24,000 bases of DNA. Origin: Oculatellaceae cyanobacterium. GTDB taxonomy: Bacteria; Cyanobacteriota; Vampirovibrionia; Obscuribacterales; Obscuribacteraceae. Of the stretch, positions 3,814 through 23,537 are shown piece after piece; position 1 is the stretch's first letter; every line of letters begins with the position of its first letter. The notes below the pieces were generated by a model that was not told the origin of the DNA, made no database searches, and worked only from the letters and a program-made list of their open reading frames with translations. A program made the translations under genes and the position numbers. Where the stretch lies: NCBI GenBank assembly GCA_036702975.1, contig DATNPX010000034.1, positions 413,818 through 437,817 of the forward strand, in the 5' to 3' direction.

Positions 3814-4797
3814 CTAGAGAATACGCTTGCCGAGTACCGACAAGATCAATTCGGTGCCCAGTTCGGCAGTTCTGTTACGGACGTCGAGCGCTGGATTCAG
3901 TTCGACGATATCTACAGAGGTCACGAGATCTGTTTCGGCTAAAAGCTCAAGAGCGAGATGACTCTCTCTATAATTGAGACCACCACGAGAATCAGTGCTC
4001 ACGCCAGGAGCAACGTCAGGATCAATTACATCAAGATCGAATGACACGTGCAGCCCACTTATATCGCCACCGATAGCACCAAGTGCACGATTCATAACTT
4101 CGGGCAATCCTAAGTGGTCGATATCTTTCATCGTGAAGGCGGCCACACCGCAGTCGTCGATCAGATCGCGCTCGGGCTCATCCAACGCCCGTATTCCTAT
4201 TAAGGCCGTACGATTGCGGGGAACCTTCGGTTGATAATCATTGAGTTCGACCAAACGCGAATCGCCCCGACCAAGCGAGATTGCCAGGGGCATACCATGA
4301 ACGTTTCCACTGGAGCTGGTGGCAGGAGTGTTGATGTCCCCATGAGCGTCGAACCAAACCAGGCCAAATTCTTTCTTGATCCGTTTAAAGTGCTTGGACA
4401 CGCCAGCGATGCTGCCTATGGCCAGACTGTGGTCCCCGCCTATGGTGACCGGAATGTGACCATTGGCGAGAGCGTCGTCTACGGCATCTGATACGTCCTG
4501 ACTTACTTTCAAAATTTCGGGGATGCACTTGGCAGTGGTCTGGTCACCCCAACAGACTGAGCGTGGAACGTCGATATCGATCTCTTCAGCAACGTTGAGT
4601 CCTAATTTTTCAATCTTCTCTGCCACTTCAGCCACTTTCATGGCTGCCGGTCCCATACTGACCCCGCGATGAGCGCCGCCAAGATGCAGAGGCACGTAAA
4701 TCAAAGAGACAGAGCGCAATTTCTTCTTAGACGCAGTCTTTTCGCGCGATACTTTAGGCACTGATTTGAACTCCCGTGTTCTAACTATCGAATTCAC
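3814..4797 (-). CDS. rocF: Arginase (ureohydrolase family)
   Basis: Mn-binding and signature motifs are present: GGDHSLAIGS, WFDAHGDINTP, SGNVHGMPLA, SFDLDVIDPDVAPGV, GGLNYRESH and ELNP. It aligns along its length with Bacillus RocF from memory. The start is GTG 4797 with GAGGA 7 nt upstream. There is a roughly 30-aa basic N-terminal extension. Confidence 0.9.
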   Translation of the reverse strand: MNSIVRTREFKSVPKVSREKTASKKKLRSVSLIYVPLHLGGAHRGVSMGPAAMKVAEVAEKIEKLGLNVAEEIDIDVPRSVCWGDQTTAKCIPEILKVSQDVSDAVDDALANGHIPVTIGGDHSLAIGSIAGVSKHFKRIKKEFGLVWFDAHGDINTPATSSSGNVHGMPLAISLGRGDSRLVELNDYQPKVPRNRTALIGIRALDEPERDLIDDCGVAAFTMKDIDHLGLPEVMNRALGAIGGDISGLHVSFDLDVIDPDVAPGVSTDSRGGLNYRESHLALELLAETDLVTSVDIVELNPALDVRNRTAELGTELILSVLGKRIL

Positions 4798-4810
4798 GAC
4801 CTATTCCTCA

Positions 4811-4843
4811 GATGTTGATAGGAGATGTTGTTAGGTTGATAAG
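4811..4843. repeat. Direct repeats GATGTTGATAGG / GATGTTGTTAGG / TTGATAAG just upstream of the arginase RBS
   Basis: The copies are at 4811-4822 and 4824-4835 (one mismatch), followed by a partial third copy at 4836-4843. On the - strand they read CCTAWCAACATC x2 immediately 5' of the GAGGA SD. Confidence 0.6.
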
Positions 4844-5089
4844 CGGCAAACATTGCCAGTGCCACCGAAATTCGGTAACACATTGTTCTTTTGCCGACGT
4901 CGACAAGTAATCATAAAGAACGCTAGTGTATAATCTTTCGATAGATTTGTCTTTGTTCGGCTTCGGTTCACCGCTCCAGCCACCCTCATCGGTTGCTGAG
5001 CGCAAACAAAAAGTTGGCTGCCAGATTCTTGAACGTTTTTTGTACGGATTTAGCTGCAGCAGCCAGGAGAGATTAGGGAGGTTAGAGAA

Positions 5090-5452
5090 GTGTTCCGTCC
5101 GTTGGTGAAATTGTTTTTCTTGGCGAAAGCAACTTTCGAAGTTGCCCGCGAGCGAGTAGAAGACGCGGTCGATTCTTTGACCGCCAGAGCTGGCGAATAC
5201 AGATCCTCGAGCAACGACCACCTGCACGAGGCCAAAGAGAAGGTAAGACAGGTCGTTGGCGAAATAGCGCAAAACATTTGGCAACGCTCTGAAGTCTTGG
5301 AAAGCCAAACAAAGGAAAAAATTCGCCGCCAAGTAGCTGATTTTTCCTTGGGTGCCCTAGGCGACACAACTGAAATCAATGAACTGCGGGCAGAAATCGC
5401 TACTTTACGAGCAGAAATCGCCGAACTTCGCTCCAGCAGAGTGAGCATTTAG
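5090..5452 (+). CDS. Small coiled-coil protein, function unknown
   Basis: The start is GTG 5090 with GGGAGG at 5076-5081 (8-nt spacing). The sequence is helical and charged, ending in the heptad-like ELRAEIATLRAEIAELR. It is preferred over three overlapping - strand ORFs. Confidence 0.6.
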   Translation: MFRPLVKLFFLAKATFEVARERVEDAVDSLTARAGEYRSSSNDHLHEAKEKVRQVVGEIAQNIWQRSEVLESQTKEKIRRQVADFSLGALGDTTEINELRAEIATLRAEIAELRSSRVSI

Positions 5453-5545
5453 TCTGGCCGCGATTGCCACGCCTGAATTCCGTCTGAAATAATGGCCCGT
5501 TAGCGAGTTCGGTGCGGACTGGAACGCTGATAGAGGCAGGTCATA

Positions 5546-8500
5546 GTGAGTAGCGATAGCCAATCGAAAGAAGAGCAGTCGCGCGATTTGCCGACAGAGC
5601 AGGACGTTGAGCCGGCTAACACCGATCAAAAAAAGCAAAGACTCGAACCGAAAAGCCTGGCCGAGGCAAGTACGACGGTCGTCGACGAAACAAGTGATGG
5701 TCTAGATACGGCGGCAGCGTCTCACATCGAAGAAGTTCCGGCGGCATCAGATAGCCACTCCTCTTCAAAACCGGGAGAGGCGAGCACTCCTGAACAGGCC
5801 GATCAGCTAGCTACAGCCGGCAGTGGCGAGGCGCCGTCGATTAGCGCCACCATCACCTCACAGGCACAATCTATTCATGATGCGGCTAGGCAAGCCGCAA
5901 TTCTGGCTGATTCGGAAGAACTGAAGTCTAAACTCAAGCGACCAACGGACAAGGCTATTCAAGCTGCCGCATCGGTCATGCAAAACCTTGAAGCTGCACA
6001 AGAGAAGGATTTCGATGCCTGGTTAGACGAACTCGACGCAAAACTAGCTGCAGCCAGCGCCCTTCTAGACAAGGCGGCAGAAGAGAAGGAAGCGCTGCAC
6101 AGAGTGGAAGCAGAGATTGCTGCCGCTCAACAGATGGCAGCTGAAAGAGTCGCCAAAGAAAGGCTCGAACATCTAGTAGCACAGGAAAAAACCGAGCCAA
6201 GCGAAAAGAGAGAAAGTAAAAGTCACAAGAGCAGACCAGTTGGAGAACACAAGGAGCGTCGCAAGTTACCGCGCGACACTCGTGAGACCTCTGGACCGAA
6301 AAAGCTCTTGCCGTCAGCACCAGACTCAGTGCCTGCGGCAGAAAAAAAACATCCTGCAGATAAATCAGGCAGCAGAGAAGAACGCAACCAGGCGCAAAAA
6401 AGCCAGACGACTCGAGACGAGCGCGATAACTTAAAAAAAGAGACGAATCAAGAGAAGATACAATCCCCGTCCACCGAAAGTTCTAGCGAAAGTCCAGCCG
6501 GCAACACCGCTGGCGATACCGAACAAAAACCAGCTCAACGCATCAATAAAGCCACTCATTCGCCGCCGCAAGCAACGAAGCATGAGCCTCAAGCCGTCAC
6601 GCGCAGAAAAAATTCTTCCGTAACCGATTCGCTCCAAGAAGCGGCCAACACACCACCAACAGTGCCGACTTGCGTTCCCGTTTCCACAACAGGTGCACCA
6701 ACATATGATCCGGAAATCGCTGACGAATATGTAAAATTGAGACGTCTCGCTCTCGACGATCGCTTCTGGAGCATGACAAAGTTGATGGCCTCATTCGCCA
6801 AAGAGAAAGCACGCAATAAGTGGCTCCCAGATAAAAAAGTTCCGGCATCAGTGCGCAAACGCGCTCTCGCAATTCGATTTCGCGAAGCGCTTGTGGAACT
6901 TGGTCCAACTTTTATCAAACTCGGTCAATTTCTATCGGTGAGACGTGATCTGCTCGAGGCAGAAGTGGCTGATGAACTGGCCACGCTGCAAGACAAAGTG
7001 CCACCATTTTCGGCCGACCAAGCGATAAAAACGATCGCACAAGAGCTTGGGCAAGAGCCAGACAAACTGTTTTTGGAGTTCGACAATACACCGATCGCCT
7101 CGGCTAGTATTGGACAGGTGCACCGTGCGCGGTTGCACGACGGTCGCGAAGTTGTGGTCAAGGTTCAGCGTCCCGATCTTGCTTCCAAATTTTACCAAGA
7201 CCTTGGCTACATGAGAGCCTTGATTCGTTGGGGTCGCCGTCTTAAACCCGATGGAGACTGGGATGGTTGGTTGGCTTTATCGGACGAGTTCGGACGTTCT
7301 TTGTTTTCCGAAATTGATTATTTGCAGGAAGGCAAAAATGCCGACCGCATGCGCATAAATTTGCGCGATTCAGGCTTCATTCGCATCCCGCGAGTGATCT
7401 GGAAATACACCGGACGGCATGTCCTGGCTTTTGAATATTGTCCTGGTATCAAAATCGATCGTATTTCTGAATTGAAAGAACGAGGTTTCGATCTGATCGA
7501 GATCGGCAATCAGCTAGTCTACGCCTATCTCGAGCAAGTTCTTATTCACGGTTACTTTCATGCCGATCCTCATGCCGGCAATCTAGCAATTGACGACGAG
7601 GGTCGCATCATCATGTACGACTTCGGCATGGTGGGCGAAATAAGCGAAGCACAGCGATTGGCAATTGCGGGTTGTGTTACGTCGGTAATCGACAAACAAG
7701 GCGAAGACGTCGCGCAATATCTTGTCGAGCTTGGCGTCTTGAAAGCAGAAGCGAACAAAGCGCCCGTGGTGCGAACCTTGACTCCATTTATCGATTATTA
7801 CTCCGGTCGTTCAGTGAAAGATCTCGATTTTTCGCATCTGGAAAGAGACATCGATCAGATTGCACTTGAACGGGCGTTGAAACTACCAGCCAATCTCGCC
7901 TATCTCTTGCGTGCTGGCAGTTCTGTTGAAGGAATCGCGAGAACATTGCAACCCGAATTCAGCTTCGTGGAAGCAGCGAAACCATTCATACAAAGGTGGT
8001 TACTAAGCAGGCCAAGCGCCTTCGGGGCCCTGTTAAAAATATTTTTGAAATACAGTGCCGAGGCATACAGAACCAGTGCAGAACGCCTCACAAGCGGCTC
8101 TGGTTTGTTCGGATTTGGCAAGCGCAAAGAGAAAAGCGGTCAAGAGATACCACGAGCTCAACCAACTCGCAGTACAGCCCAAGAAGCCGCAAACAAAGGA
8201 ATTAGTGCCCGTCCGAGCAGCAGTGAAAAAACGCCGCCGCGTGTGACATCATTACCGGCGCAGCCAACAGCGACCTCGGTTACGCCGCTATCCCTGCCAG
8301 ATGCCGAACCCGAAGACGTCCCAGCCACAACCATCGACAGCGCCACGCAAGCCCTTGAGAGAGACTGTCAAAATCAGCAACGACAAATTTACTTACTGGA
8401 AACAAGACTTGGAAAAAGCGTTAGACTACAGATGATTGTAGGCTGGTCTGCGGCGGGAGCTCTTGTATTCTCCTCTCTTTTTTTAATTGCGAGTTTTCTT

Positions 8501-16050: not shown

Positions 16051-18558
16051 ATGAAAGCGATGGCGAACACTAGTCACCAGGCAGTTAACGTCAAGACAAA
16101 GCACTACAACTATATAGGTTTGGCGTTATCTCTTTTACTTCTCGGAAACGCAACAACGGCAGGCTTACCCGCGCTTGCAGCCTCTGATTCCGGCACAGCG
16201 AAATTGATTTTGGCGGAAGCGACTCCGCCAGACACTAGCAAGAAAGCTGACGCTGACGACGATCAAGACAAGAAAGCAGAAAAGCAAAAGCGCAAGCAAG
16301 AGAAGCAAGACGCAAAAGCCGCTGACAAAGCGAAAAAAGAAGACGACAAGGCAGCAGAAAAGTCCAAGAAAGACGACGTAAAGAGTAAGAAGGACGAAGA
16401 CAAGGCCGCAGAGAAGTCTAAAAAAGACGACGATAAGACCACGAAGAAAGACGATAAAGCATCGGACAAGGCAAAAAAAGACGAAAAAGACGCCGAAAAA
16501 GAGAAAGCCAAGAAGGACGAAAAAGCGAAGCAAGTCTCAGACAAACCAGCGAAAACGGACAAGCCCGTCAATACGGTAAAAGGAAAAGAAGCGGGCGACG
16601 ATGCCAAGAAAGAAGGTGACGAAAGCAAAACCGCAGAGGCCGACACACGCATCGAAACGCCGCCAAACTACGCGCCAGATGCCGCACTGATTTCAGTTTT
16701 AAAAGACCTCAGTCGTTCGCTCAAAGAGAGTGAAGAGTTTACGAAAATAGAAGATCCTGCGCAAAAAGCCGTAGTAGAGCTTGCTCATAGCGCTTTGCGC
16801 AAAGCCCTGGAAGATTCTCAACTTTCGTCAAATCGCATTGTAGAAAAAGTCGGCAAAGACAACGATATGCCTCCAATGGGCACGGAAGCGTGGTCTTCAG
16901 GAGAGCTCGATCTGGGAGACGACGGCCGAGCAGCTTTATCGGTAGTCTGGGCAAAGAGAGAAAACGGTTTGATGATGGTCACCATAGCTGGTACCACCGA
17001 CAAAAAAGCGCCTAAAGGTAAGAAGATTGGCGAGTACGTAGTTGTAATCAACGCTCGCTCCTCCGTAGAAAATGGATTCGATATTCAAAGCCAGCAAAAC
17101 GTAAGCTTTTGGCTCGGCAAAGTCGGCTCAATCACAATAGAGTCCGATTGTGTTCCGGCACCTGTACCTCCGGCAGCTGAAGGCGCAGAAGCAAAGACAC
17201 CCAATAAGGTGAGCGAGGATGACGAAGCAGTAAAAAAAAAGTCCCTGATAATACTGCCGGTGCTGCTCACTAATCGACGCCGCGAATATCTAGCAGCAGT
17301 AATGGCGGTCGAAAAACATAATGCGCTCGTCTCAACAAAGTTAGCAGAAGCAGCCAAGGCTGAGGCAGACGCAAAAGCCGAGTCCAAGACTGATGCGAAG
17401 GGTGAGTCATCGAGTACCTCTCAGATCAGTGATTTACCACCAGGCGTTGAAGCGAAGACGATGCAAGAAGCCTATGAGCGAGCATTGCGCGCAGTGGCAA
17501 TGAAAGAACTCATGAAAATGACACCAAACTCTGAGGCGGAGAAGCCTGGCGCAGAGAAAGGCGGCACAGCTGCCAGCAAAGAAGGAAACGACCAAGCAGC
17601 GAAAGATGACAATGCACAGGCCGCCAAAACTGAAGCTAACGCTGCGACGAAGTCAAATCAGAAATCGGCAACGGCTCAAAACGCTGCGGATAACGGCAAG
17701 TATGTAGAAAGTTCGAAGCAGTCACAAGCTCCTGCGCAGTCTCAACCTACCGGACAGCCACAAATACAGACTCAAGCGCAAACTCAGCACCAACCGTCTG
17801 TGGTGGCACAACAAGGAGAAACTCAGGTAGCTAACCAAACGACTTCAAATCCACAACCGGCTGCACAGCCACAAGCGAACCAAGTAGCCATGCTACCGGC
17901 CCACGGAACGACGGTGATTAACCCTGGACCTGACAATGTCTCCGCATTTCGAGCAGTGCGTCAACCAAGTGTTGGAGCAATGATGATGGTGCCGGAAAGA
18001 GCGCTCGCCGGACAAAGCATGACTATCTCCATTTACGACTCAAAACGTAATCCCGAGGCATCGGTTGAGTTAAGCCTCAACGGCAGCACGATGATTTCAA
18101 ATATTGACGGACAAGTATCATTTACAATTCCCGAAGATGCCACTCCGGGTCGTTCATTGAACGTCGCACTAGCTGCCCGCCCTGAAGTGATGCCGACGGT
18201 AATAGACATTCTTCAACCACTGATTGTGCCTTCGGAGAAACAAACCCCAAGCATCGAGGGTGTGACACTGACGGGCACGCACAACGATACACTCGTGATC
18301 AACGGACACTTCTTTGATGGAATTGCACCGAACAACAAGATTTCGATCGACGGTCAGGTGCAAGGAAGAATCGCTGCAGCGTCACCTGTCGAGCTACGAG
18401 TAAGCTTACCCATAACGCTACAAGGCGGCGAACACACAGTCGTCGTAAGTTGTGATGGAATGAACAGCAATTTGGGAACGTTCACGACTGAGGCACCACC
18501 AGCGCCACCGCCGTCTGCGTTAGAGCTCAAAAAAAAGCCGAAGCAGCCACGCTACTAG
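16051..18558 (+). CDS. Secreted Lys/Asp/Glu-rich repeat protein with C-terminal Ig-like / IPT-TIG-like domains
   Basis: A strong SD (GAGGGGAAG) precedes the ATG. The signal peptide is LALSLLLLGNATTAGLPALAA. There is a charged repeat region (KAAEKSKKDD...), a Q/P-rich stretch and a C-terminal segment SIEGVTLTGTHNDTLVINGHFFDG...VELRVSLP...GEHTVVVSCDG typical of IPT/TIG folds. Confidence 0.8.
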   Translation: MKAMANTSHQAVNVKTKHYNYIGLALSLLLLGNATTAGLPALAASDSGTAKLILAEATPPDTSKKADADDDQDKKAEKQKRKQEKQDAKAADKAKKEDDKAAEKSKKDDVKSKKDEDKAAEKSKKDDDKTTKKDDKASDKAKKDEKDAEKEKAKKDEKAKQVSDKPAKTDKPVNTVKGKEAGDDAKKEGDESKTAEADTRIETPPNYAPDAALISVLKDLSRSLKESEEFTKIEDPAQKAVVELAHSALRKALEDSQLSSNRIVEKVGKDNDMPPMGTEAWSSGELDLGDDGRAALSVVWAKRENGLMMVTIAGTTDKKAPKGKKIGEYVVVINARSSVENGFDIQSQQNVSFWLGKVGSITIESDCVPAPVPPAAEGAEAKTPNKVSEDDEAVKKKSLIILPVLLTNRRREYLAAVMAVEKHNALVSTKLAEAAKAEADAKAESKTDAKGESSSTSQISDLPPGVEAKTMQEAYERALRAVAMKELMKMTPNSEAEKPGAEKGGTAASKEGNDQAAKDDNAQAAKTEANAATKSNQKSATAQNAADNGKYVESSKQSQAPAQSQPTGQPQIQTQAQTQHQPSVVAQQGETQVANQTTSNPQPAAQPQANQVAMLPAHGTTVINPGPDNVSAFRAVRQPSVGAMMMVPERALAGQSMTISIYDSKRNPEASVELSLNGSTMISNIDGQVSFTIPEDATPGRSLNVALAARPEVMPTVIDILQPLIVPSEKQTPSIEGVTLTGTHNDTLVINGHFFDGIAPNNKISIDGQVQGRIAAASPVELRVSLPITLQGGEHTVVVSCDGMNSNLGTFTTEAPPAPPPSALELKKKPKQPRY
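16345..16432 (+). repeat. In-frame 54-nt-period repeat encoding DKAAEKSKKDD twice, inside a larger GAA/AAG/GAC-rich tract (~16255-16560)
   Basis: 34-nt copies at 16345-16378 and 16399-16432 differ at 4 positions. All four are synonymous third-codon positions (GCA/GCC, GAA/GAG, TCC/TCT, AAG/AAA). Confidence 0.85.
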
Positions 18559-18656
18559 TTACTTCAGACGTTCGAGCCGATATAGGCAATACAATCAGCG
18601 GCTTAGGCAATTTGTGTTTAGCTTTGAATTTTCTTTCGTGCATGACGATTTTCCTA

Positions 18657-18685
18657 TTGACGACATATTGCTTGTGTTGTAATTT
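18657..18685 (+). promoter_or_regulatory. Predicted sigma70-type promoter (TTGACG-17 nt-TAATTT) in the intergenic region upstream of rsr
   Basis: The -35 is at 18657-18662 and the -10 at 18680-18685. It would drive the structured unit at 18690-18956. This is a sequence match only. Confidence 0.4.
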
Positions 18686-18715
18686 GAGATCTCGTAGATC
18701 ACTCGGAGCGAGATC

Positions 18716-18898
18716 ATGTTGACTTTCAACAAGATAAATTTATTCGCCAACCAAGCCTCAAATTATTTTGAGCTCGACACGGCGCTTGTTGAAAACCGCT
18801 CCACATCGCCGTTTTCCCCGAGCCCGAGGCGATGGAACTATTTGCATCGCCTGGCAGGTAGATCGGGACCGGCGAAATTATGTTCTATAAATCAATAA
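18716..18898 (+). CDS. Possible 60-aa small protein; alternatively this span is non-coding RNA
   Basis: ATG 18716 has GGAG 7 nt upstream (18705-18708). The predicted promoter lies upstream and hairpins lie downstream. The product has no recognisable motif, and the ORF body is full of alternative RNA helices. Confidence 0.3.
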   Translation: MLTFNKINLFANQASNYFELDTALVENRSTSPFSPSPRRWNYLHRLAGRSGPAKLCSINQ

Positions 18899-18910
18899 TT
18901 TTTGGTCCCG
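18864..18910 (+). other. Long imperfect stem-loop (7 bp + 2 G-U + CG bulge + 7 bp, 13-nt loop)
   Basis: CGGGACC (18864-18870) pairs with GGTCCCG (18904-18910). AAATTAT (18875-18881) pairs with ATAATTT (18895-18901). The structure spans the stop codon of the 60-aa ORF. Confidence 0.6.
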
Positions 18911-18934
18911 CAAATAAACACGCCGCCTAGCCAT

Positions 18935-18956
18935 TGCGGCTTCAAAAGCCGCATTT
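18935..18956 (+). terminator. Terminator-like hairpin TGCGGCT-TCAAA-AGCCGCA followed by TTT
   Basis: It has a 7-bp GC-rich stem and a short U-tract of only 3 nt. The loop UUCAAAA with a 5-bp GCGGC/GCCGC stem also looks superficially like a T-arm, but the closing pair is C-G rather than G-C. Confidence 0.4.
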
Positions 18957-19177
18957 AACCAGGTTTCACGCACCCGACGTCTTTTCGCATAAAAAGTCCC
19001 TGCGAGTTGGGACGAAACGATGCAGTTAGAGCTCGCGCGCAGTGCTGCAAGAGATGAGAGATTCTTCTCCGAAAGCCTGATTTCAACTCATTCTTCAAAG
19101 ACACCTCCATCCAACCTGGTGGCAGTAACTCGACACGCCATCAATTCCTTTTTCACTTATGCAAGTGAGGTCACATC

Positions 19178-20899
19178 ATGTTCGACGCACTAAGAAATTT
19201 CATAACAAACAATGCCAACCAGCGCGAACAATTGCCAGGACAGATATCCAACAATGCTGGGGGATACTCATACATGACCAACGACTGGACGCAGCTTGTG
19301 CGATTCCTTATCTTGGGCACTACCCGTGGCAGCTACTACGTAGGTGAAAGAGACTTGACCGTCCAAAATTTGGAAGCCATAGAAAGATGCATTGCCGAAG
19401 ATGCTGAACGAGTCGTAGCTCTTGTTAGAGAAGTGAGCACCGCGGGTAGAGCTCTTAAGAACGATCCAGCTCTATTTGTTCTCGCTATGGTGGCATCAAA
19501 ACAGATACAAGTGGAAGTGAAAGGTAAGCTGATCACTGTTCCAACAGCTGGTGCAAAGGCTGCTTATGCAGCTATTCCAGAAGTAGCACGCACGTTCACA
19601 CACCTTTCCCACTTCGTCACCTTTGTGCGCAAGGGCAAAATGCGCGGATGGGGAAGAGGTTTTCGAAAAGCAATCGCTCGTTGGTTCACAATGAAATCAA
19701 CCGAAGCGCTCGCCTATCAAGCCATCAAATATCATGCGCGCGATGGTTTTAGCCAGAAGGAGGTCGCCTGGTTATGTCACGCCGGTTGCTTCTTAGCTAA
19801 AAACGATGCAGCTCGACGAGCTGTCTTCGATTACTTGGGCTACAAGGCGAAGCGGAACGCGAGCACTCTCGGCTTGAACGAAAGCGATCTGACGAAACTA
19901 CGTCGAATCGATGCGGCTAGATTATTGCTGCAGGCAACTGACGAGTCAAAAGCTGCAGCAATAGTTCGCGAATACGATCTGCCCGTGGAAATCGTACCAA
20001 CTCAACTTAGAGGGAAGGAGATTTACGAAGCAGTTGCAGCAAATGCGCCACTTGGTTGGTTGCTGAGAAATCTCGGCAATCTGGGCAAAGTGGGACTGCT
20101 CACGATCGACAACCGCTCATTCGCTAAAGGAGTGTGCAAGAAACTTACCGATCAAAATAGTCTCTACAAGGCCCGCTTGCATCCTCTCAGCATATTCATT
20201 GCCTTCAACACGTACAAAAGTGGAAGAGGTTACAGATCAAAGGGAGTTTGGCCTGTCGTGCCTAGTGTCCTGGACGCTCTAGATGAGGCTTTCTACGCAA
20301 GCTTCAGATATGTTCGTTCATCCGGTAAGCGCATATTGATCGCAATTGACGTCTCCGGTTCCATGAGAGGTACACACGTGCACGGCGTAGACGACCTGTG
20401 TGCACATGAAGCGAGTGCAGTATTAGCATTGGTAGCAGCACATGCTGAAAGCAATTTTCACTGTGTAGCCTTCGATACCGATACCTATCCGCTAAATATC
20501 TCGAGAAGACAACGACTAGATGACGTGATGCAGCGCATTGCAAAAACAGGAGGTGGTGGAACAGACTGCGCCCAACCGTTCATCTACGCAACACGAAACA
20601 AGTTGAATGTTGATCTGTTTGTTTGCTTAACCGACTCAGAAACATGGGCCGGAAAAAAGCATGTGATACCCGCATTGCGCCAATACCGCGAATCTAGCGG
20701 AATTGAAGCCAGAGCGATAAACATCGCAATGACAGCAAATCGTGTCAGCAACTTCGATGCTGATCCGCTGTGTCTTGAAATCTCCGGATTTGATACCACA
20801 ATCCCTGAAGTAATTTCTCTGTTCAGCAACGAATCAGCTGCAACGTTTGAGAGTCCTGAAAAACGGACTCTGGATGGAATGGAAGACCGCATTGGTTGA
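19178..20899 (+). CDS. rsr: Ro60 orthologue Rsr (TROVE domain + vWA domain RNA-binding protein)
   Basis: It aligns with human Ro60 from memory along its whole length. Matches include NAGGYSYMTNDWTQLVRFLILGTTRGSYY (Ro60 [27 protein letters not shown]), RGWGRGFRKAIARWF (GMWGRALRKAIADWY), LLRNLGNLGKVGLL (LLRNLGKMTANSVL), ARLHPLSIFIAFNTYKSGRG ([20 protein letters not shown]) and GGTDCAQP. The vWA MIDAS is IAIDVSGSM. The SD GAGG lies 7 nt before the ATG. Confidence 0.94.
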   Translation: MFDALRNFITNNANQREQLPGQISNNAGGYSYMTNDWTQLVRFLILGTTRGSYYVGERDLTVQNLEAIERCIAEDAERVVALVREVSTAGRALKNDPALFVLAMVASKQIQVEVKGKLITVPTAGAKAAYAAIPEVARTFTHLSHFVTFVRKGKMRGWGRGFRKAIARWFTMKSTEALAYQAIKYHARDGFSQKEVAWLCHAGCFLAKNDAARRAVFDYLGYKAKRNASTLGLNESDLTKLRRIDAARLLLQATDESKAAAIVREYDLPVEIVPTQLRGKEIYEAVAANAPLGWLLRNLGNLGKVGLLTIDNRSFAKGVCKKLTDQNSLYKARLHPLSIFIAFNTYKSGRGYRSKGVWPVVPSVLDALDEAFYASFRYVRSSGKRILIAIDVSGSMRGTHVHGVDDLCAHEASAVLALVAAHAESNFHCVAFDTDTYPLNISRRQRLDDVMQRIAKTGGGGTDCAQPFIYATRNKLNVDLFVCLTDSETWAGKKHVIPALRQYRESSGIEARAINIAMTANRVSNFDADPLCLEISGFDTTIPEVISLFSNESAATFESPEKRTLDGMEDRIG

Positions 20900-20907
20900 C
20901 CATTACC

Positions 20908-20942
20908 CCGGAGTAGGCGCCAGGAAACTGGCGCTTACTCGG
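20908..20942 (+). other. Very stable 15-bp stem-loop with a GAAA tetraloop, 9 nt after the rsr stop, with no U-tract
   Basis: CCGGAGTAGGCGCCAG-GAAA-CTGGCGCTTACTCGG has 15 pairs (one G-U) and one bulged G. It is followed by AAAACAATGG, so it is not a canonical intrinsic terminator on either strand. Confidence 0.75.
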
Positions 20943-21770
20943 AAAACAATGGAAACACAAACGCGCTGGGCCGAAGACAGACGGTTATCTACTTCTAAGA
21001 TCACTCCGTTGTCGAAAACTCGTCTAGCGCACCCTTTCTCTGCGGGCCGCAGTGATTTGGTTATCCGATTGAGACTCGGTAAACCAATGGTTTACGCCGA
21101 ATCACAAATTCGTCCGCAGTTCGTTCAGGAGCAGGTTCCGCCGTGAGTGCGATTGAGTCGCATTATCTCTCGCCCGAATTTCGACCAAGAATTCCTGCGG
21201 CGGGACCTGCTGTTGCGGGCGGCAAGAATACCACGGCACCGACCGGCCCAGCAGTTCCTATGAGCCCGGAAGATACCCAACAACGGCACCGGCAACGGGT
21301 AAGTCCTTTCGGTGAACGCGCCAGCGGCTTATGCCAAGTATTTCAATCCGATGAAAATGAGGATCGATGCACCAATTAATTTAAGAATCACCGTTTTTGG
21401 TGCGATAACGTTATGCATGAGTTCCCCGAAAAGAGTTAGCAAAATTGTTCATGTCTTTTCTACGCATGTGCGTATTTGAACATGCAACTGCGTGAAACGA
21501 GTAAAGACATCAAGCGTGTGGATTTCTTGCGTTGAGCGCAATTAAGACCTATTGAATACCTATCGATTACTTAAGGAAATTGAGTTTGGTGTATGCCATA
21601 GTAGCAAAATCGGACTTGAGGACAGGCTCCAAGTGGATACGGGGTATCCCATGAAAAGAAGTCTGATACTGACGTAGACAATGCTTAGCTCTTAAGTTCA
21701 CAGGCACTGACGGATTAGTTTGAGCATCCTGATGCGAACCAGATCTTCACCACTTGAACAAGATTCATGG

Positions 21771-21799
21771 TTGACAAAACAAGTATTAGTCAGTAGTTT
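21771..21799 (+). promoter_or_regulatory. Predicted sigma70-type promoter (TTGACA-17 nt-TAGTTT) for the hydroxylase-family gene
   Basis: The -35 is at 21771-21776 and the -10 at 21794-21799, about 55 nt before ATG 21854, which has GGGAAGG upstream. This is a sequence match only. Confidence 0.4.
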
Positions 21800-21853
21800 G
21801 AGTACATTAGCTGGCACCACAGACAGTGACTAGCAGGAAATCCAGGGAAGGCT

Positions 21854-22453
21854 ATGTTTCTTTCATTGCAGATTGTTGGATGGTTTCTTTTCTCATGTAT
21901 TTTGATGTCTTTCATTGAACATCAAGTTCACAGCAAGCTCATGCATAAGAGATCCATTCCGATGTTCCAGCGCACCTTTCAAGCGCACGCCATTGATCAT
22001 CACATGCACTACTTGTCGATCTTTCACGACGAGCCTGTCGGGAAAAACGAAGATAAAGAGATCCGATTGACAGTCAGGAAGGCTCCTATCAAGGCACTAC
22101 CGATTGCAGCAGTAATTGCACTGGTATCGGTTCCTGGTGCAGTTGTATTTGTACTAACGGCTACTTTGCACCATTGGATCTGGAACAAAATTCACCTCGA
22201 AATGCATAAGCCAGAACAGCGCGGATTTAGCCACTGGTCGATTTATAAAGCGTTTGCTCGATATCATTGGTTGCATCATCGGTATCCAAACAAGAACTTT
22301 AATGTCGTTTTTCCGTTTGCTGATTTCGTTCTTGGAACGCACGCGAAAGCTACGGAAGAGGATAGACAGGCGATGCGCCTGGAATTCGAGCCGGCAACTG
22401 TTGTGAATAAGGCGGAGTCTAAGACACTCGTTGGTTGTGGACCTAGGCGATAG
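21854..22453 (+). CDS. Fatty-acid-hydroxylase / sterol-desaturase-superfamily membrane di-iron protein
   Basis: His-box motifs are present: HQVHSKLMH, HAIDHHMHY, HLEMH and HWLHHRYP. Hydrophobic helices are IVGWFLFSCILMSFI and ALPIAAVIALVSVPGAVVFVLTA. Confidence 0.78.
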   Translation: MFLSLQIVGWFLFSCILMSFIEHQVHSKLMHKRSIPMFQRTFQAHAIDHHMHYLSIFHDEPVGKNEDKEIRLTVRKAPIKALPIAAVIALVSVPGAVVFVLTATLHHWIWNKIHLEMHKPEQRGFSHWSIYKAFARYHWLHHRYPNKNFNVVFPFADFVLGTHAKATEEDRQAMRLEFEPATVVNKAESKTLVGCGPRR

Positions 22454-22806: not shown

Positions 22807-22973
22807 CTCCACCCCCGTAATTTTGTCGGACAGCAAGTCCAATATGGATGTATTTAGACTCGCCCAACACTTGCATAAATACATCGTTCTTTAGGAGTAT
22901 TTGCGGTCTTTCAATCGAGGGCATGGGAATTTCCGCAATTGTGCGAAGAAGAAGGAACGATGGAGACCAGCAA

Positions 22974-23537
22974 CTATTGTTTTTGACCACTATCGACAAT
23001 AATCCGCAGCGGTTTTCTGTCCCTAATTTTGAGCAAAGCGGTGCGTCCATTAATTTGCATCAGTTCCAAGTCGGCGCGCGGCGCCACATCCTCCGCATTT
23101 CCTGCAGTAATCTTAAAGATACGCATATCAGTGACTACGAAGAGATCAGCGTCTGTTTCATTAAAACCAGCGTCTGTTTCATTAAAACCATGGAAGTATC
23201 CTATCCGGCTAAGCCCGAATAGCAAGATGACATCTATCGCCACTCCAATAATTGTCCCGTGAATCCAGGACAAAGGCATTTGGAAAAACATCCCATAACC
23301 AATTATCCGAGAAAAAAACATCGACGAATAAATTGGAACGACTGGAAGACAAATCAGCACGGCTCCCAACAAGAGTGCCAAGACCACTTTTGAAAAGATT
23401 GCACCTGTTTCGGACTCTGCCTTGCCGACAAGGACAACTCGTTCGCCACGTGTAAGATGAAGTCTCGGATCGTGCATATTCTCGATATTGATCATACTTT
23501 CTCGGCAAGTCTGCGAAAAACCATGTTCCAGTATCAT
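22974..23537 (-). CDS. Two-TM membrane protein with a possible bacterial PH-like (YdbS/YdbT-type) C-terminal domain
   Basis: Two hydrophobic helices (VVLALLLGAVLICLPVVPIY and IHGTIIGVAIDVILLFGL) are followed by a beta-rich tail (LFVVTDMRIFKITAG...LLKIRDRKPLRIIV). The start is uncertain (23537 or 23495). It is preferred over the + ORF at 22848-23222. Confidence 0.5.
   Translation of the reverse strand: MILEHGFSQTCRESMINIENMHDPRLHLTRGERVVLVGKAESETGAIFSKVVLALLLGAVLICLPVVPIYSSMFFSRIIGYGMFFQMPLSWIHGTIIGVAIDVILLFGLSRIGYFHGFNETDAGFNETDADLFVVTDMRIFKITAGNAEDVAPRADLELMQINGRTALLKIRDRKPLRIIVDSGQKQ
23147..23188. repeat. Perfect tandem duplication 2 x 21 bp (CAGCGTCTGTTTCATTAAAAC), in frame within the CDS (GFNETDA x2)
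   Basis: Units 23147-23167 and 23168-23188 are identical. On the - strand they encode the duplicated heptapeptide GFNETDA between TM2 and the C-terminal domain. Confidence 0.95.

Follow-up and report, generated by a model that had tools for sequence, protein, structure and literature searches.

Introduction

Y RNAs are the partners of the ring-shaped protein Ro60 and of its bacterial orthologue Rsr. Ro60 contacts the 5' strand of a bulged helix, and in Deinococcus and Salmonella a Y RNA tethers Rsr to PNPase (PMC4201824, PMC12135203). The animal Ro site, GGUCCGA opposite UUGACY, carries a bulged C (PMC4726728). The bacterial motif has been defined as GNCGAAN0-1G plus YUAY, and the bases of the Deinococcus RNA Yrn1 that are protected by Rsr are G7, G8, C9, G11 and A12 (PMC4201824). 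YrlA has been described as a tRNA mimic of circularly permuted order in which the acceptor stem is closed (bioRxiv 10.1101/312249), and in Deinococcus a precursor joins Y RNAs and a tRNA (PMC4201824). Here we analyze the spacer directly 3' of rsr in a 24-kb stretch of contig DATNPX010000034.1 (the window; coordinates are window positions), in which we find two probable Y RNAs. Judged from comparisons of Rsr, the Rsr lineage of the window is probably related to Obscuribacterales, the nearest named genomes being at 49% Rsr identity.

A sequence-only reading of this stretch had proposed that the spacer is the home of a Y-RNA-type partner of Rsr. The proposal is supported, at the level of sequence, by an independent covariance model, by related loci and by covariation of the predicted helices.

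Results

Two probable Y RNAs in tandem directly downstream of rsr

Two Y RNAs, termed unit 1 and unit 2 (Table 1), are very probably encoded in tandem within the first 220 nucleotides (nt) of the spacer, on the same strand as rsr. They begin 64 nt and 141 nt past the rsr stop codon and together occupy about 160 of the 954 nt of the spacer. In both units the stem is closed by the unit's own 5' and 3' ends, the lower stem is a helix of the Ro60-binding type with a bulged C, and a 9-nt strand of the upper stem leads from this helix to a GGUUAUC at the mouth of the loop. In unit 1, an outer stem GCGCU/AGCGC is followed by the Ro helix, in which 20968-20974 (GGGC[C]GA) is paired with 21020-21025 (UCGUCU); the pairs are G20968-U21025, G20969-C21024, G20970-U21023, C20971-G21022, G20973-C21021 and A20974-U21020, and C20972 is bulged. 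The 3' side contains an A-rich unpaired stretch, the upper stem joins 20976-20984 to 21007-21014 by 8 pairs, and GGUUAUC (20983-20989) opens a loop of 21 nt, UUAUCUACUUCUAAGAUCACU, 14 of which are pyrimidines. In unit 2, the Ro helix pairs 21044-21049 (GGGC[C]G, bulged C at 21048) with 21111-21115 (CGUCC), GGUUAUC occupies 21059-21065, and the loop holds two inner hairpins, one at 21066-21078 with a 7-nt loop UUGAGAC and one at 21079-21095 with a stem of 7 base pairs (bp) and the loop AAU. Both units fold better than shuffled sequences (z -2.65 for unit 1 and -4.63 for unit 2). By chance, 0.02 copies of the motif GGGCCG-N9-GGTTATC would be expected in the window; it has two, separated by 76 nt. 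Unit 1 contains GCCGAAG, which fits the bacterial GNCGAAG, and the conserved YUAY is present in both units as part of UUAUC (20985-20989 and 21061-21065), which is invariant or nearly so across the alignment of units.

The sequence-only reading had found no classical Ro-binding helix by eye and had expected any partner RNA to be divergent from the described classes. The first statement was wrong: as read from the sequence, the Ro helix of both units (GGGC[C]G/CGUCY) is near-classical, and the RNAs are less divergent than had been supposed. The search by eye failed because the exact animal strings were sought, while the helix differs from them at two pairs. Its other negative, that no proper T arm is present, was right, as neither ARAGORN nor the Rfam tRNA model gave a match in the window and the corresponding loop of unit 2 is UUGAGAC.

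Table 1. Positions of rsr and of the features assigned in its flanks
Feature	Position	Strand	Description
Promoter-like site	18657-18685	+	window TTGAC-N18-TAATTT; relatives TTGAC-N17-18-TG(T/G)TGTAAGTT
rsr leader	18716-18954	+	small open reading frame and two hairpins; conserved, not Y RNA
rsr (Ro60 orthologue)	19178-20899	+	573 amino acids; Pfam TROVE (3e-23) and vWA_Ro60 (2e-48)
Strong hairpin	20908-20942	+	15-bp stem, GAAA loop; z -7.7 for 20900-20962
Probable Y RNA unit 1	20963-21030	+	68-nt hairpin; plain stem-loop, YrlB/Yrn2 type
Probable Y RNA unit 2	21040-21119	+	Ro helix, GGUUAUC and two inner hairpins in the loop
Long hairpin	21130-21211	+	AGCAGGUUCCGCCGU ... GCGGCGGGACCUGCU; z -2.9; no Ro motif
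Spacer remainder	21216-21853		about 640 nt, AT-rich; z +1.06, -0.62, +0.54

Comparison with the described Y RNA loci

The arrangement resembles that of the rsr-yrlB-yrlA locus of Salmonella Typhimurium, in which two Y RNAs are also encoded directly downstream of rsr on the same strand (PMC4201824) and in which a 5' strand of the GNCGAA(N)G type followed by YUAY is found, as in the window. In Salmonella one RNA is a plain hairpin and the other is tRNA-like, whereas unit 2 would only once have carried such a module; compared to YrlA, what stands in its place has neither the T-loop consensus nor a D arm. A further difference is that no rtcR or rtcBA genes are found beside rsr in the window. The lineages differ, and the likeness to YrlA and YrlB is one of architecture.

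In Deinococcus radiodurans, the protected bases of Yrn1 fit GGCCGA, to be compared with GGGCCGA in the window, and Yrn2 is a long hairpin like unit 1. Yrn1 has a T arm and no full D arm, like units of two relatives of the window described below (L096 and L092). The Deinococcus Y RNAs are located upstream of rsr, in contrast to the downstream units of the window, and their locus includes a tRNA; the relatives of the window carry a tRNA-Glu gene there and the window has none.

The single bulged C in the lower stem and the unpaired stretch opposite are also found in animal Y RNAs and in nematode stem-bulge RNAs. Human Y4 and Y1 read GGUCCG-N9-(G/A)GUUAUC, with the same 9-nt spacing as the units of the window, and the UUAUC that opens the loop is likewise common to animal Y RNAs and to the window units (PMC4726728). 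Animal Y RNAs have RNA polymerase III and La features, whereas the units are bacterial, apparently operon-encoded, and lack these.

Covariance models detect both units and their helices covary

Two covariance models were used: R1 was built from 36 plain units, and R2 solely from 28 rsr-linked units of other phyla. Run with filters off, R2 matched unit 1 with 38.2 bits (E 1.2e-5) and unit 2 with 31.7 bits (E 2.4e-4), and had no further match in the rest of the window; the R1 scores are 49.2 bits and 39 bits, respectively. No Rfam family matched the window at gathering thresholds. In a permissive scan of positions 18400-22000, RF01656 aligned to 21038-21120 (23.7 bits, E 0.11) and to 20962-21030 (16.3 bits, E 9.7), covering the lower stem and GGUUAUC. 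This family consists of the nematode stem-bulge RNAs ceN72-3/ceN74-2, and stem-bulge RNAs have been described as homologues of Y RNAs (PMC4726728). On related bacterial units, RF01656 reaches up to 40.4 bits (L067), above its gathering threshold of 38.

In an alignment of 86 units, 86.3% of the cells at paired positions can pair. Sliding the partners by 1-3 columns lowers this value to 37-50% and the covariation score from 0.59 to at most 0.17, and changes on both sides are seen in 17 of the 20 pairs. Restricted to the 21 units of the window's own clade, 82.5% are paired compared to 34-48% in the slid controls, with a score of 0.49 against at most 0.15. Within this clade the second pair of the Ro helix is G-C (16 units) or A-U (5 units), and no variation is seen in the C-G pair, in the bulged C or in the G-C pair after it. 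The models detect both units, and the base pairs covary strongly.

Units accompany rsr in relatives and in other phyla

A search for Rsr homologues gave 7390 proteins at E<=1e-30. The neighbours of the window's Rsr are a 99% identical sister strain and relatives at 61-73% identity, after which identity drops to about 50% (compared rsr loci carry labels such as L001 or L096). When the downstream spacer was compared by blastn to the relatives, only the sister strain matched. Reading of the spacers nevertheless revealed that in eight relatives, whose Rsr is 61-73% identical, tandem units follow rsr directly on its 3' side: three units in L001, two in L002, three in L004, two to four in each of L090-L093 and two in L096; a ninth relative, L097, gave a weak match only. 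The relatives' spacers are 215-470 nt long and mostly occupied by Y units. In L096 (71% Rsr identity) the order of the window is kept, with a hairpin after the stop codon, a plain unit and then a longer unit. The first unit begins 12-54 nt past the rsr stop codon in seven of the eight relatives, and 154 nt past it in L090. A separate promoter would not fit into so short a distance, and the units are therefore most simply read as co-transcribed with rsr. A metagenome scan for closer relatives yielded one distant locus only.

Breadth was assessed on 80 rsr loci from one-genome-per-species collections, including Obscuribacterales, Armatimonadota, Gemmatimonadota, Myxococcota, Chloroflexota and others. 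The motif G[GA]GCCG-N8-10-G[GA]T[TA]AT[CT] has 182 copies in the sequences searched and is found in 58 of the 80 loci, on the rsr strand everywhere but in L027, and often in arrays of up to eight copies. In 0.53 Mb, R1 detected 86 complete hairpins at E<=1e-3, all on the rsr strand and distributed over 38 of the 80 loci. Across phyla, rsr-linked units are located upstream as well as downstream of rsr.

Several of these loci have features of their own. In L027 a Y/tRNA-like array with 10 motif copies (4120-6332, minus strand) lies opposite to rsr and converges with it. In L020, L022, L026, L062, L065, L085 and L093, which belong to several phyla, rsr is flanked on its own strand by arrays of 3-12 tRNA or tRNA-like genes interleaved with Y units, and L093 has six further tRNA genes just upstream on the opposite strand. 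In the relative with 61% identity (L004/L005, 6125-9662), two genes downstream of rsr and its three Y units, on the same strand, encode Hen1 (RNA 3'-end methyltransferase) and Pnkp (kinase-phosphatase-ligase); this RNA repair pair parallels the linkage of rsr with rtcBA in Salmonella.

tRNA-like modules and the type of each unit

Unit 1 is a single hairpin with the Ro site in its stem, a pyrimidine-rich loop and no tRNA-like module; judged by its architecture, it is a plain hairpin of the YrlB/Yrn2 type. The type of unit 2 was approached through the relatives. Complete YrlA-type RNAs are present downstream of rsr in two Obscuribacterales loci with 49% Rsr identity (L010, 5038-5174 and 5383-5516; L011, 4521-4652). 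Their module comprises a V hairpin, a T arm GGUGG-UUCGAAU-CCACC, an acceptor-like hairpin and a D arm UAGCUCAGNUGGNUAGAGCA. The Ro helix, GGUUAUC and the 3' strand AAAUCGUCC are common to these RNAs and to the window units; the complete permuted tRNA module is confined to the former. In L096 (2192-2310) and L092 (4353-4461) a unit has a canonical T arm and an acceptor-like hairpin and no D arm, the T loops being UUCGAAU and UUCAAAU, and in L001 the T arm is degenerate. The inner hairpins of unit 2 probably occupy the positions of the T arm and acceptor-like stem-loop of the relatives. A T arm with a loop of the UUCRANY type is absent from the window units, and inspection revealed no D arm in either of them. 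The 7-bp hairpin of unit 2 stands in acceptor-like order, although its MAFFT alignment to the acceptor-like stems of the relatives is ambiguous, and when unit 2 was aligned by MAFFT with the T arm-bearing units, no clear hairpin was assigned to the T arm. Since the defining YrlA features fail, unit 2 was kept out of the YrlA type, in line with the suspicion of the sequence-only reading that no full tRNA-like type is encoded here. From its architecture, unit 2 is probably the decayed counterpart of the T arm-bearing unit of the relatives.

Two other kinds of element were encountered at rsr loci of other phyla. In the first, present at many of these loci, elements of 105-155 nt are matched over their full length by the Rfam tRNA model (L067, 1510-1616; L072, 1930-2052; L045, 1750-1858; L027, 5902-6055 on the minus strand; and others). 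They have a normal acceptor stem, a D arm and a T arm, with ACCA encoded in L072, and the place of the anticodon arm is taken by the Ro helix, with its strands in reversed order and a short loop at its end (CUUGCCCG-UCUU-CGGGCCGA...GGUUAUC). There are 17 tRNA-model matches in 20 loci, and about 37 candidates with an upstream D arm were collected by regular expression. These elements are the tRNA-ordered counterpart of YrlA. In the second, found at five Myxococcota loci about 150-200 nt 3' of rsr (L026, 4266-4345; L052, 4306; L064, 4304; L068, 4266; L071, 4279), the Ro motif GGGCCGAAAGGCGUCGAUUAUC continues directly into a 29-nt stretch with 100% identity to E. coli 23S rRNA (~1902-1930), which we take to be the helix 69 region. 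The minimum free energy folds of the L026 and L064 elements are not better than those of shuffled sequences (z -1.2 and +0.3). A Y RNA that mimics rRNA is a possible reading of this element.

The rsr leader and the upstream promoter-like site

The upstream spacer (18560-19177) was also considered as a home for a Y RNA and was rejected: it contains a promoter-like site, a ribosome-binding site and a small open reading frame (ORF), with no Ro motif and no match to R1. The promoter-like site is conserved in the window and in all seven relatives with upstream sequence. A GGAG at 18705-18708 precedes the small ORF (18716-18898, 60 amino acids), and ORFs of 55-60 amino acids are present in the relatives; the peptide is weakly conserved, only near its C-terminus (HRxxGRxGPAK) and in the closest relatives. 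One hairpin of the leader (18864-18872/18902-18910) spans the ORF stop codon and another is located at 18936-18954. In L004 the first of them shows a compensatory change from GGGAC/GUCCC to GAGAC/GUCUC. Nucleotide identity of 18672-18971 to L001 and L002 is 71% and 62%. The leader could provide control through a leader peptide or an attenuator-like structure.

A tRNA-Glu(UUC) gene is found 60-190 nt before rsr on the same strand in all seven relatives with upstream sequence (L001, 3806-3879; L002, 3828-3901; L004, 3867-3940; L090, 2347-2418; L091, 184-255; L092, 2318-2389; L093, 2322-2393). These tRNAs share a conserved G1-U72 pair, and position 37 is a pyrimidine in L002. No tRNA gene is present upstream of rsr in the window or in the sister strain. 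The tRNA-Glu locus of the relatives resembles the precursor that joins Y RNAs and a tRNA in Deinococcus, which suggests a single transcript from 18657 through rsr to the Y RNAs.

The remainder of the spacer and sister-strain differences

The gap of 954 nt between rsr and the next gene holds no credible protein gene, as the sequence-only reading had stated; the ORF list, Pfam and homologue searches agree on this. The only ORFs of at least 60 amino acids inside it are 20847-21146 and 21143-21379, with none on the minus strand between 20893 and 22153. The next long ORF (21854-22453, plus strand), also annotated as a gene on sister-strain contigs, is not linked to rsr in any relative. The description of the first half as GC-richer and packed with helices was borne out as well: the GC content is 0.52-0.59 across 20900-21400 and 0.40-0.43 across 21400-21850, and 20900-21400 folds better than shuffled sequences on both strands (z -3.9 and -3.75). 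This excess of structure ends near 21215, with z +1.06 for 21216-21350, and none is seen in 21380-21853 (z -0.6 and +0.5). The second half of the spacer gives no sign of structured RNA. The stretch 21121-21853 was also examined for a further Y unit or a tRNA-like element, and none was found, as there is no R1 match and no excess structure past 21215. The remainder (21216-21853), which has no blastn match in the relatives beyond the sister strain and no Rfam match, is probably intergenic DNA of an ordinary kind, in which the promoter region of the next gene is contained. The promoter that had been proposed at 21771-21799 fared less well, with a good -35 (TTGACA), a poor -10 (TAGTTT) and no entry in the promoter-scan list.

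The two hairpins that flank the units contain no Ro motif. The strong hairpin before unit 1 has a positional counterpart in L096 only, where a different hairpin is found (2066-2100), and it could serve in processing or stabilisation at the junction of the rsr mRNA with the Y RNAs. A hairpin similar to the long one after unit 2, with GGACCTGCTG in common, follows the Y units of L001 (5955-6038) and is absent from the other relatives; as it is common to L001 only, the long hairpin was rejected as a conserved element. Processing, stabilisation or termination could be the role of either hairpin.

The end of rsr itself differs between the window and its relatives. The protein has 573 amino acids compared to 553 in the closest relatives, with a C-terminal extension of 20 amino acids, and over 20840-20899 the rsr frame continues for 60 nt into sequence that is spacer in the relatives. 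The ancestral stop codon seems to have been lost in the lineage of the window. Further downstream, the sister strain lacks 21 nt at 23147-23167 and 78 nt at 23250-23327. The former is one copy of a tandem repeat, encoding SVCFIKTSVCFIKT and GFNETDAGFNETDA in two overlapping ORFs (22848-23222 on the plus strand and 22974-23537 on the minus strand).

Discussion

Several observations weigh against the assignment of the two units as Y RNAs. Unit 2 has GCCGCAG, which is one base off GNCGAA. The third pair of the Ro helix is G-U or G-C where animals have U-A, and in this clade the pair after the bulge is G-C where animals have G-U. Neither unit has a T loop, a D arm, a recognisable terminator or a promoter of its own. 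Both remain under the gathering threshold of RF01656 (23.7 and 16.3 bits against 38), and when Rfam 15 was searched at E<=10 over 18400-22000, just one chance snoRNA match was obtained beyond this family, and no animal or bacterial Y RNA family that Rfam may contain responded. About three quarters of the spacer has no assigned function. The evidence consists of sequence, fold, linkage to rsr and covariation. Finally, covariation was measured on alignments that had been fitted to the model, a procedure that favours structure; we nonetheless take the Ro helix as real, because the difference from the slid controls and the changes in the outer stem are large enough.

The same evidence allows other explanations of the spacer to be weighed. 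That it encodes one or two small disordered proteins is highly improbable. Both ORFs are present and 21143-21379 is annotated as a gene on sister-strain contigs, but neither matches Pfam and tblastn with them in 90 rsr loci gave no match. Among 5.8 billion proteins, the sole homologue of the 21143-21379 product is the 96% identical copy of the sister strain, from which it differs by three non-synonymous changes and one synonymous change. In the sister strain, two 1-nt deletions (20906 and 20943) break the ORF 20847-21146 into pieces in three frames, and this ORF is overlaid by the covarying RNA helices; coding potential was rejected for both ORFs on the basis of Pfam, homologue search, the frame breaks and tblastn. 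It is scarcely conceivable that the whole 950 nt form one long novel structured RNA. The region 20900-21400 does fold well and no gene is present, but four separate hairpins explain the excess structure, the sequence from 21216 to 21853 folds no better than shuffled sequences and is conserved in no relative, and the spacers of the relatives are far shorter and largely made of Y units.

Two explanations that accept the hairpins and assign them otherwise are also improbable, the first of them slightly more so. If the hairpins were generic 3' untranslated region, terminator or repeat elements of the rsr mRNA with no binding of Rsr, their position directly past the stop codon, the missing promoter and the two flanking hairpins devoid of a Ro motif would be accounted for. 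However, the conserved bases coincide with known Ro60 contacts (the bulged C and the 5' strand GGNCCGA), a U tract is missing, the unit adjoins rsr in many phyla both upstream and downstream, and the full YrlA-type RNAs in L010 and L011 have the same helix as their stem. Alternatively, the units might be decaying relics, with the working partner RNA encoded elsewhere, either at 18657-18954 or somewhere not linked to rsr: the T-loop consensus retained in L096 and L092 is lost from unit 2, the window has lost the tRNA-Glu gene, and sequence conservation is higher upstream of rsr than downstream of it. Against this, both units keep all the invariant bases of the Ro helix together with GGUUAUC, their folds are better than those of shuffled sequences, and the upstream region has no Ro motif or model match beside its promoter, ribosome-binding site and small ORF. 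The changes in the sister strain also preserve pairing: 21026 A>G in the outer stem of unit 1 leaves a U-G pair, 20921 C>T turns a C-G into a U-G pair in the strong hairpin, and the deletions at 20906 and 20943 fall in the unpaired flanks of that hairpin.

If the two units are Y RNAs, they would be transcribed together with rsr, for which the conserved site at 18657 is the likely promoter, and would be cut out of the rsr transcript. The lower helix of each unit (5' strands at 20968-20974 and 21044-21049) would then bind the outer face of the Rsr ring. By analogy to Deinococcus and Salmonella, the units might gate the ring or use their loop modules to tether Rsr to an effector, for example PNPase, and the differing modules could give the Rsr particle two alternative partners or states. 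We infer both the expression of the units and their binding to Rsr from sequence features.

The plain rsr-linked hairpins of bacteria raise a question about deep ancestry. They share the lower stem with a bulged C, the 9-nt upper strand and the position of UUAUC with animal Y RNAs and nematode stem-bulge RNAs, and some of them score above the threshold of RF01656. True homology, rather than mere analogy, was considered on these grounds; we regard it as a tentative idea with the balance tilted against it. If true, it would go against the published statement that no homology links bacterial Y RNAs to the vertebrate clades (PMC4726728). UUAUC, so far tied to activity in animal DNA replication, would then be an ancient feature related to Ro60.

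One small clade presents a series of modules, from complete (L010, L011) through a T arm only (L096, L092) to unrecognisable (the window), and this series bears on whether the tRNA-like module is essential. Y RNAs beside rsr are what specialists would expect; the lineage and the form are ones that go undetected by Rfam at the gathering level. Rfam families at that level missed these units, whereas R1 finds them beside rsr in 38 of the 80 loci from other phyla, and the plain type may be commoner than the YrlA-centred survey of 2014 indicated. For an uncultivated lineage related to Obscuribacterales, the analysis provides likely RNA partners of Rsr, with exact coordinates and a defined binding helix.

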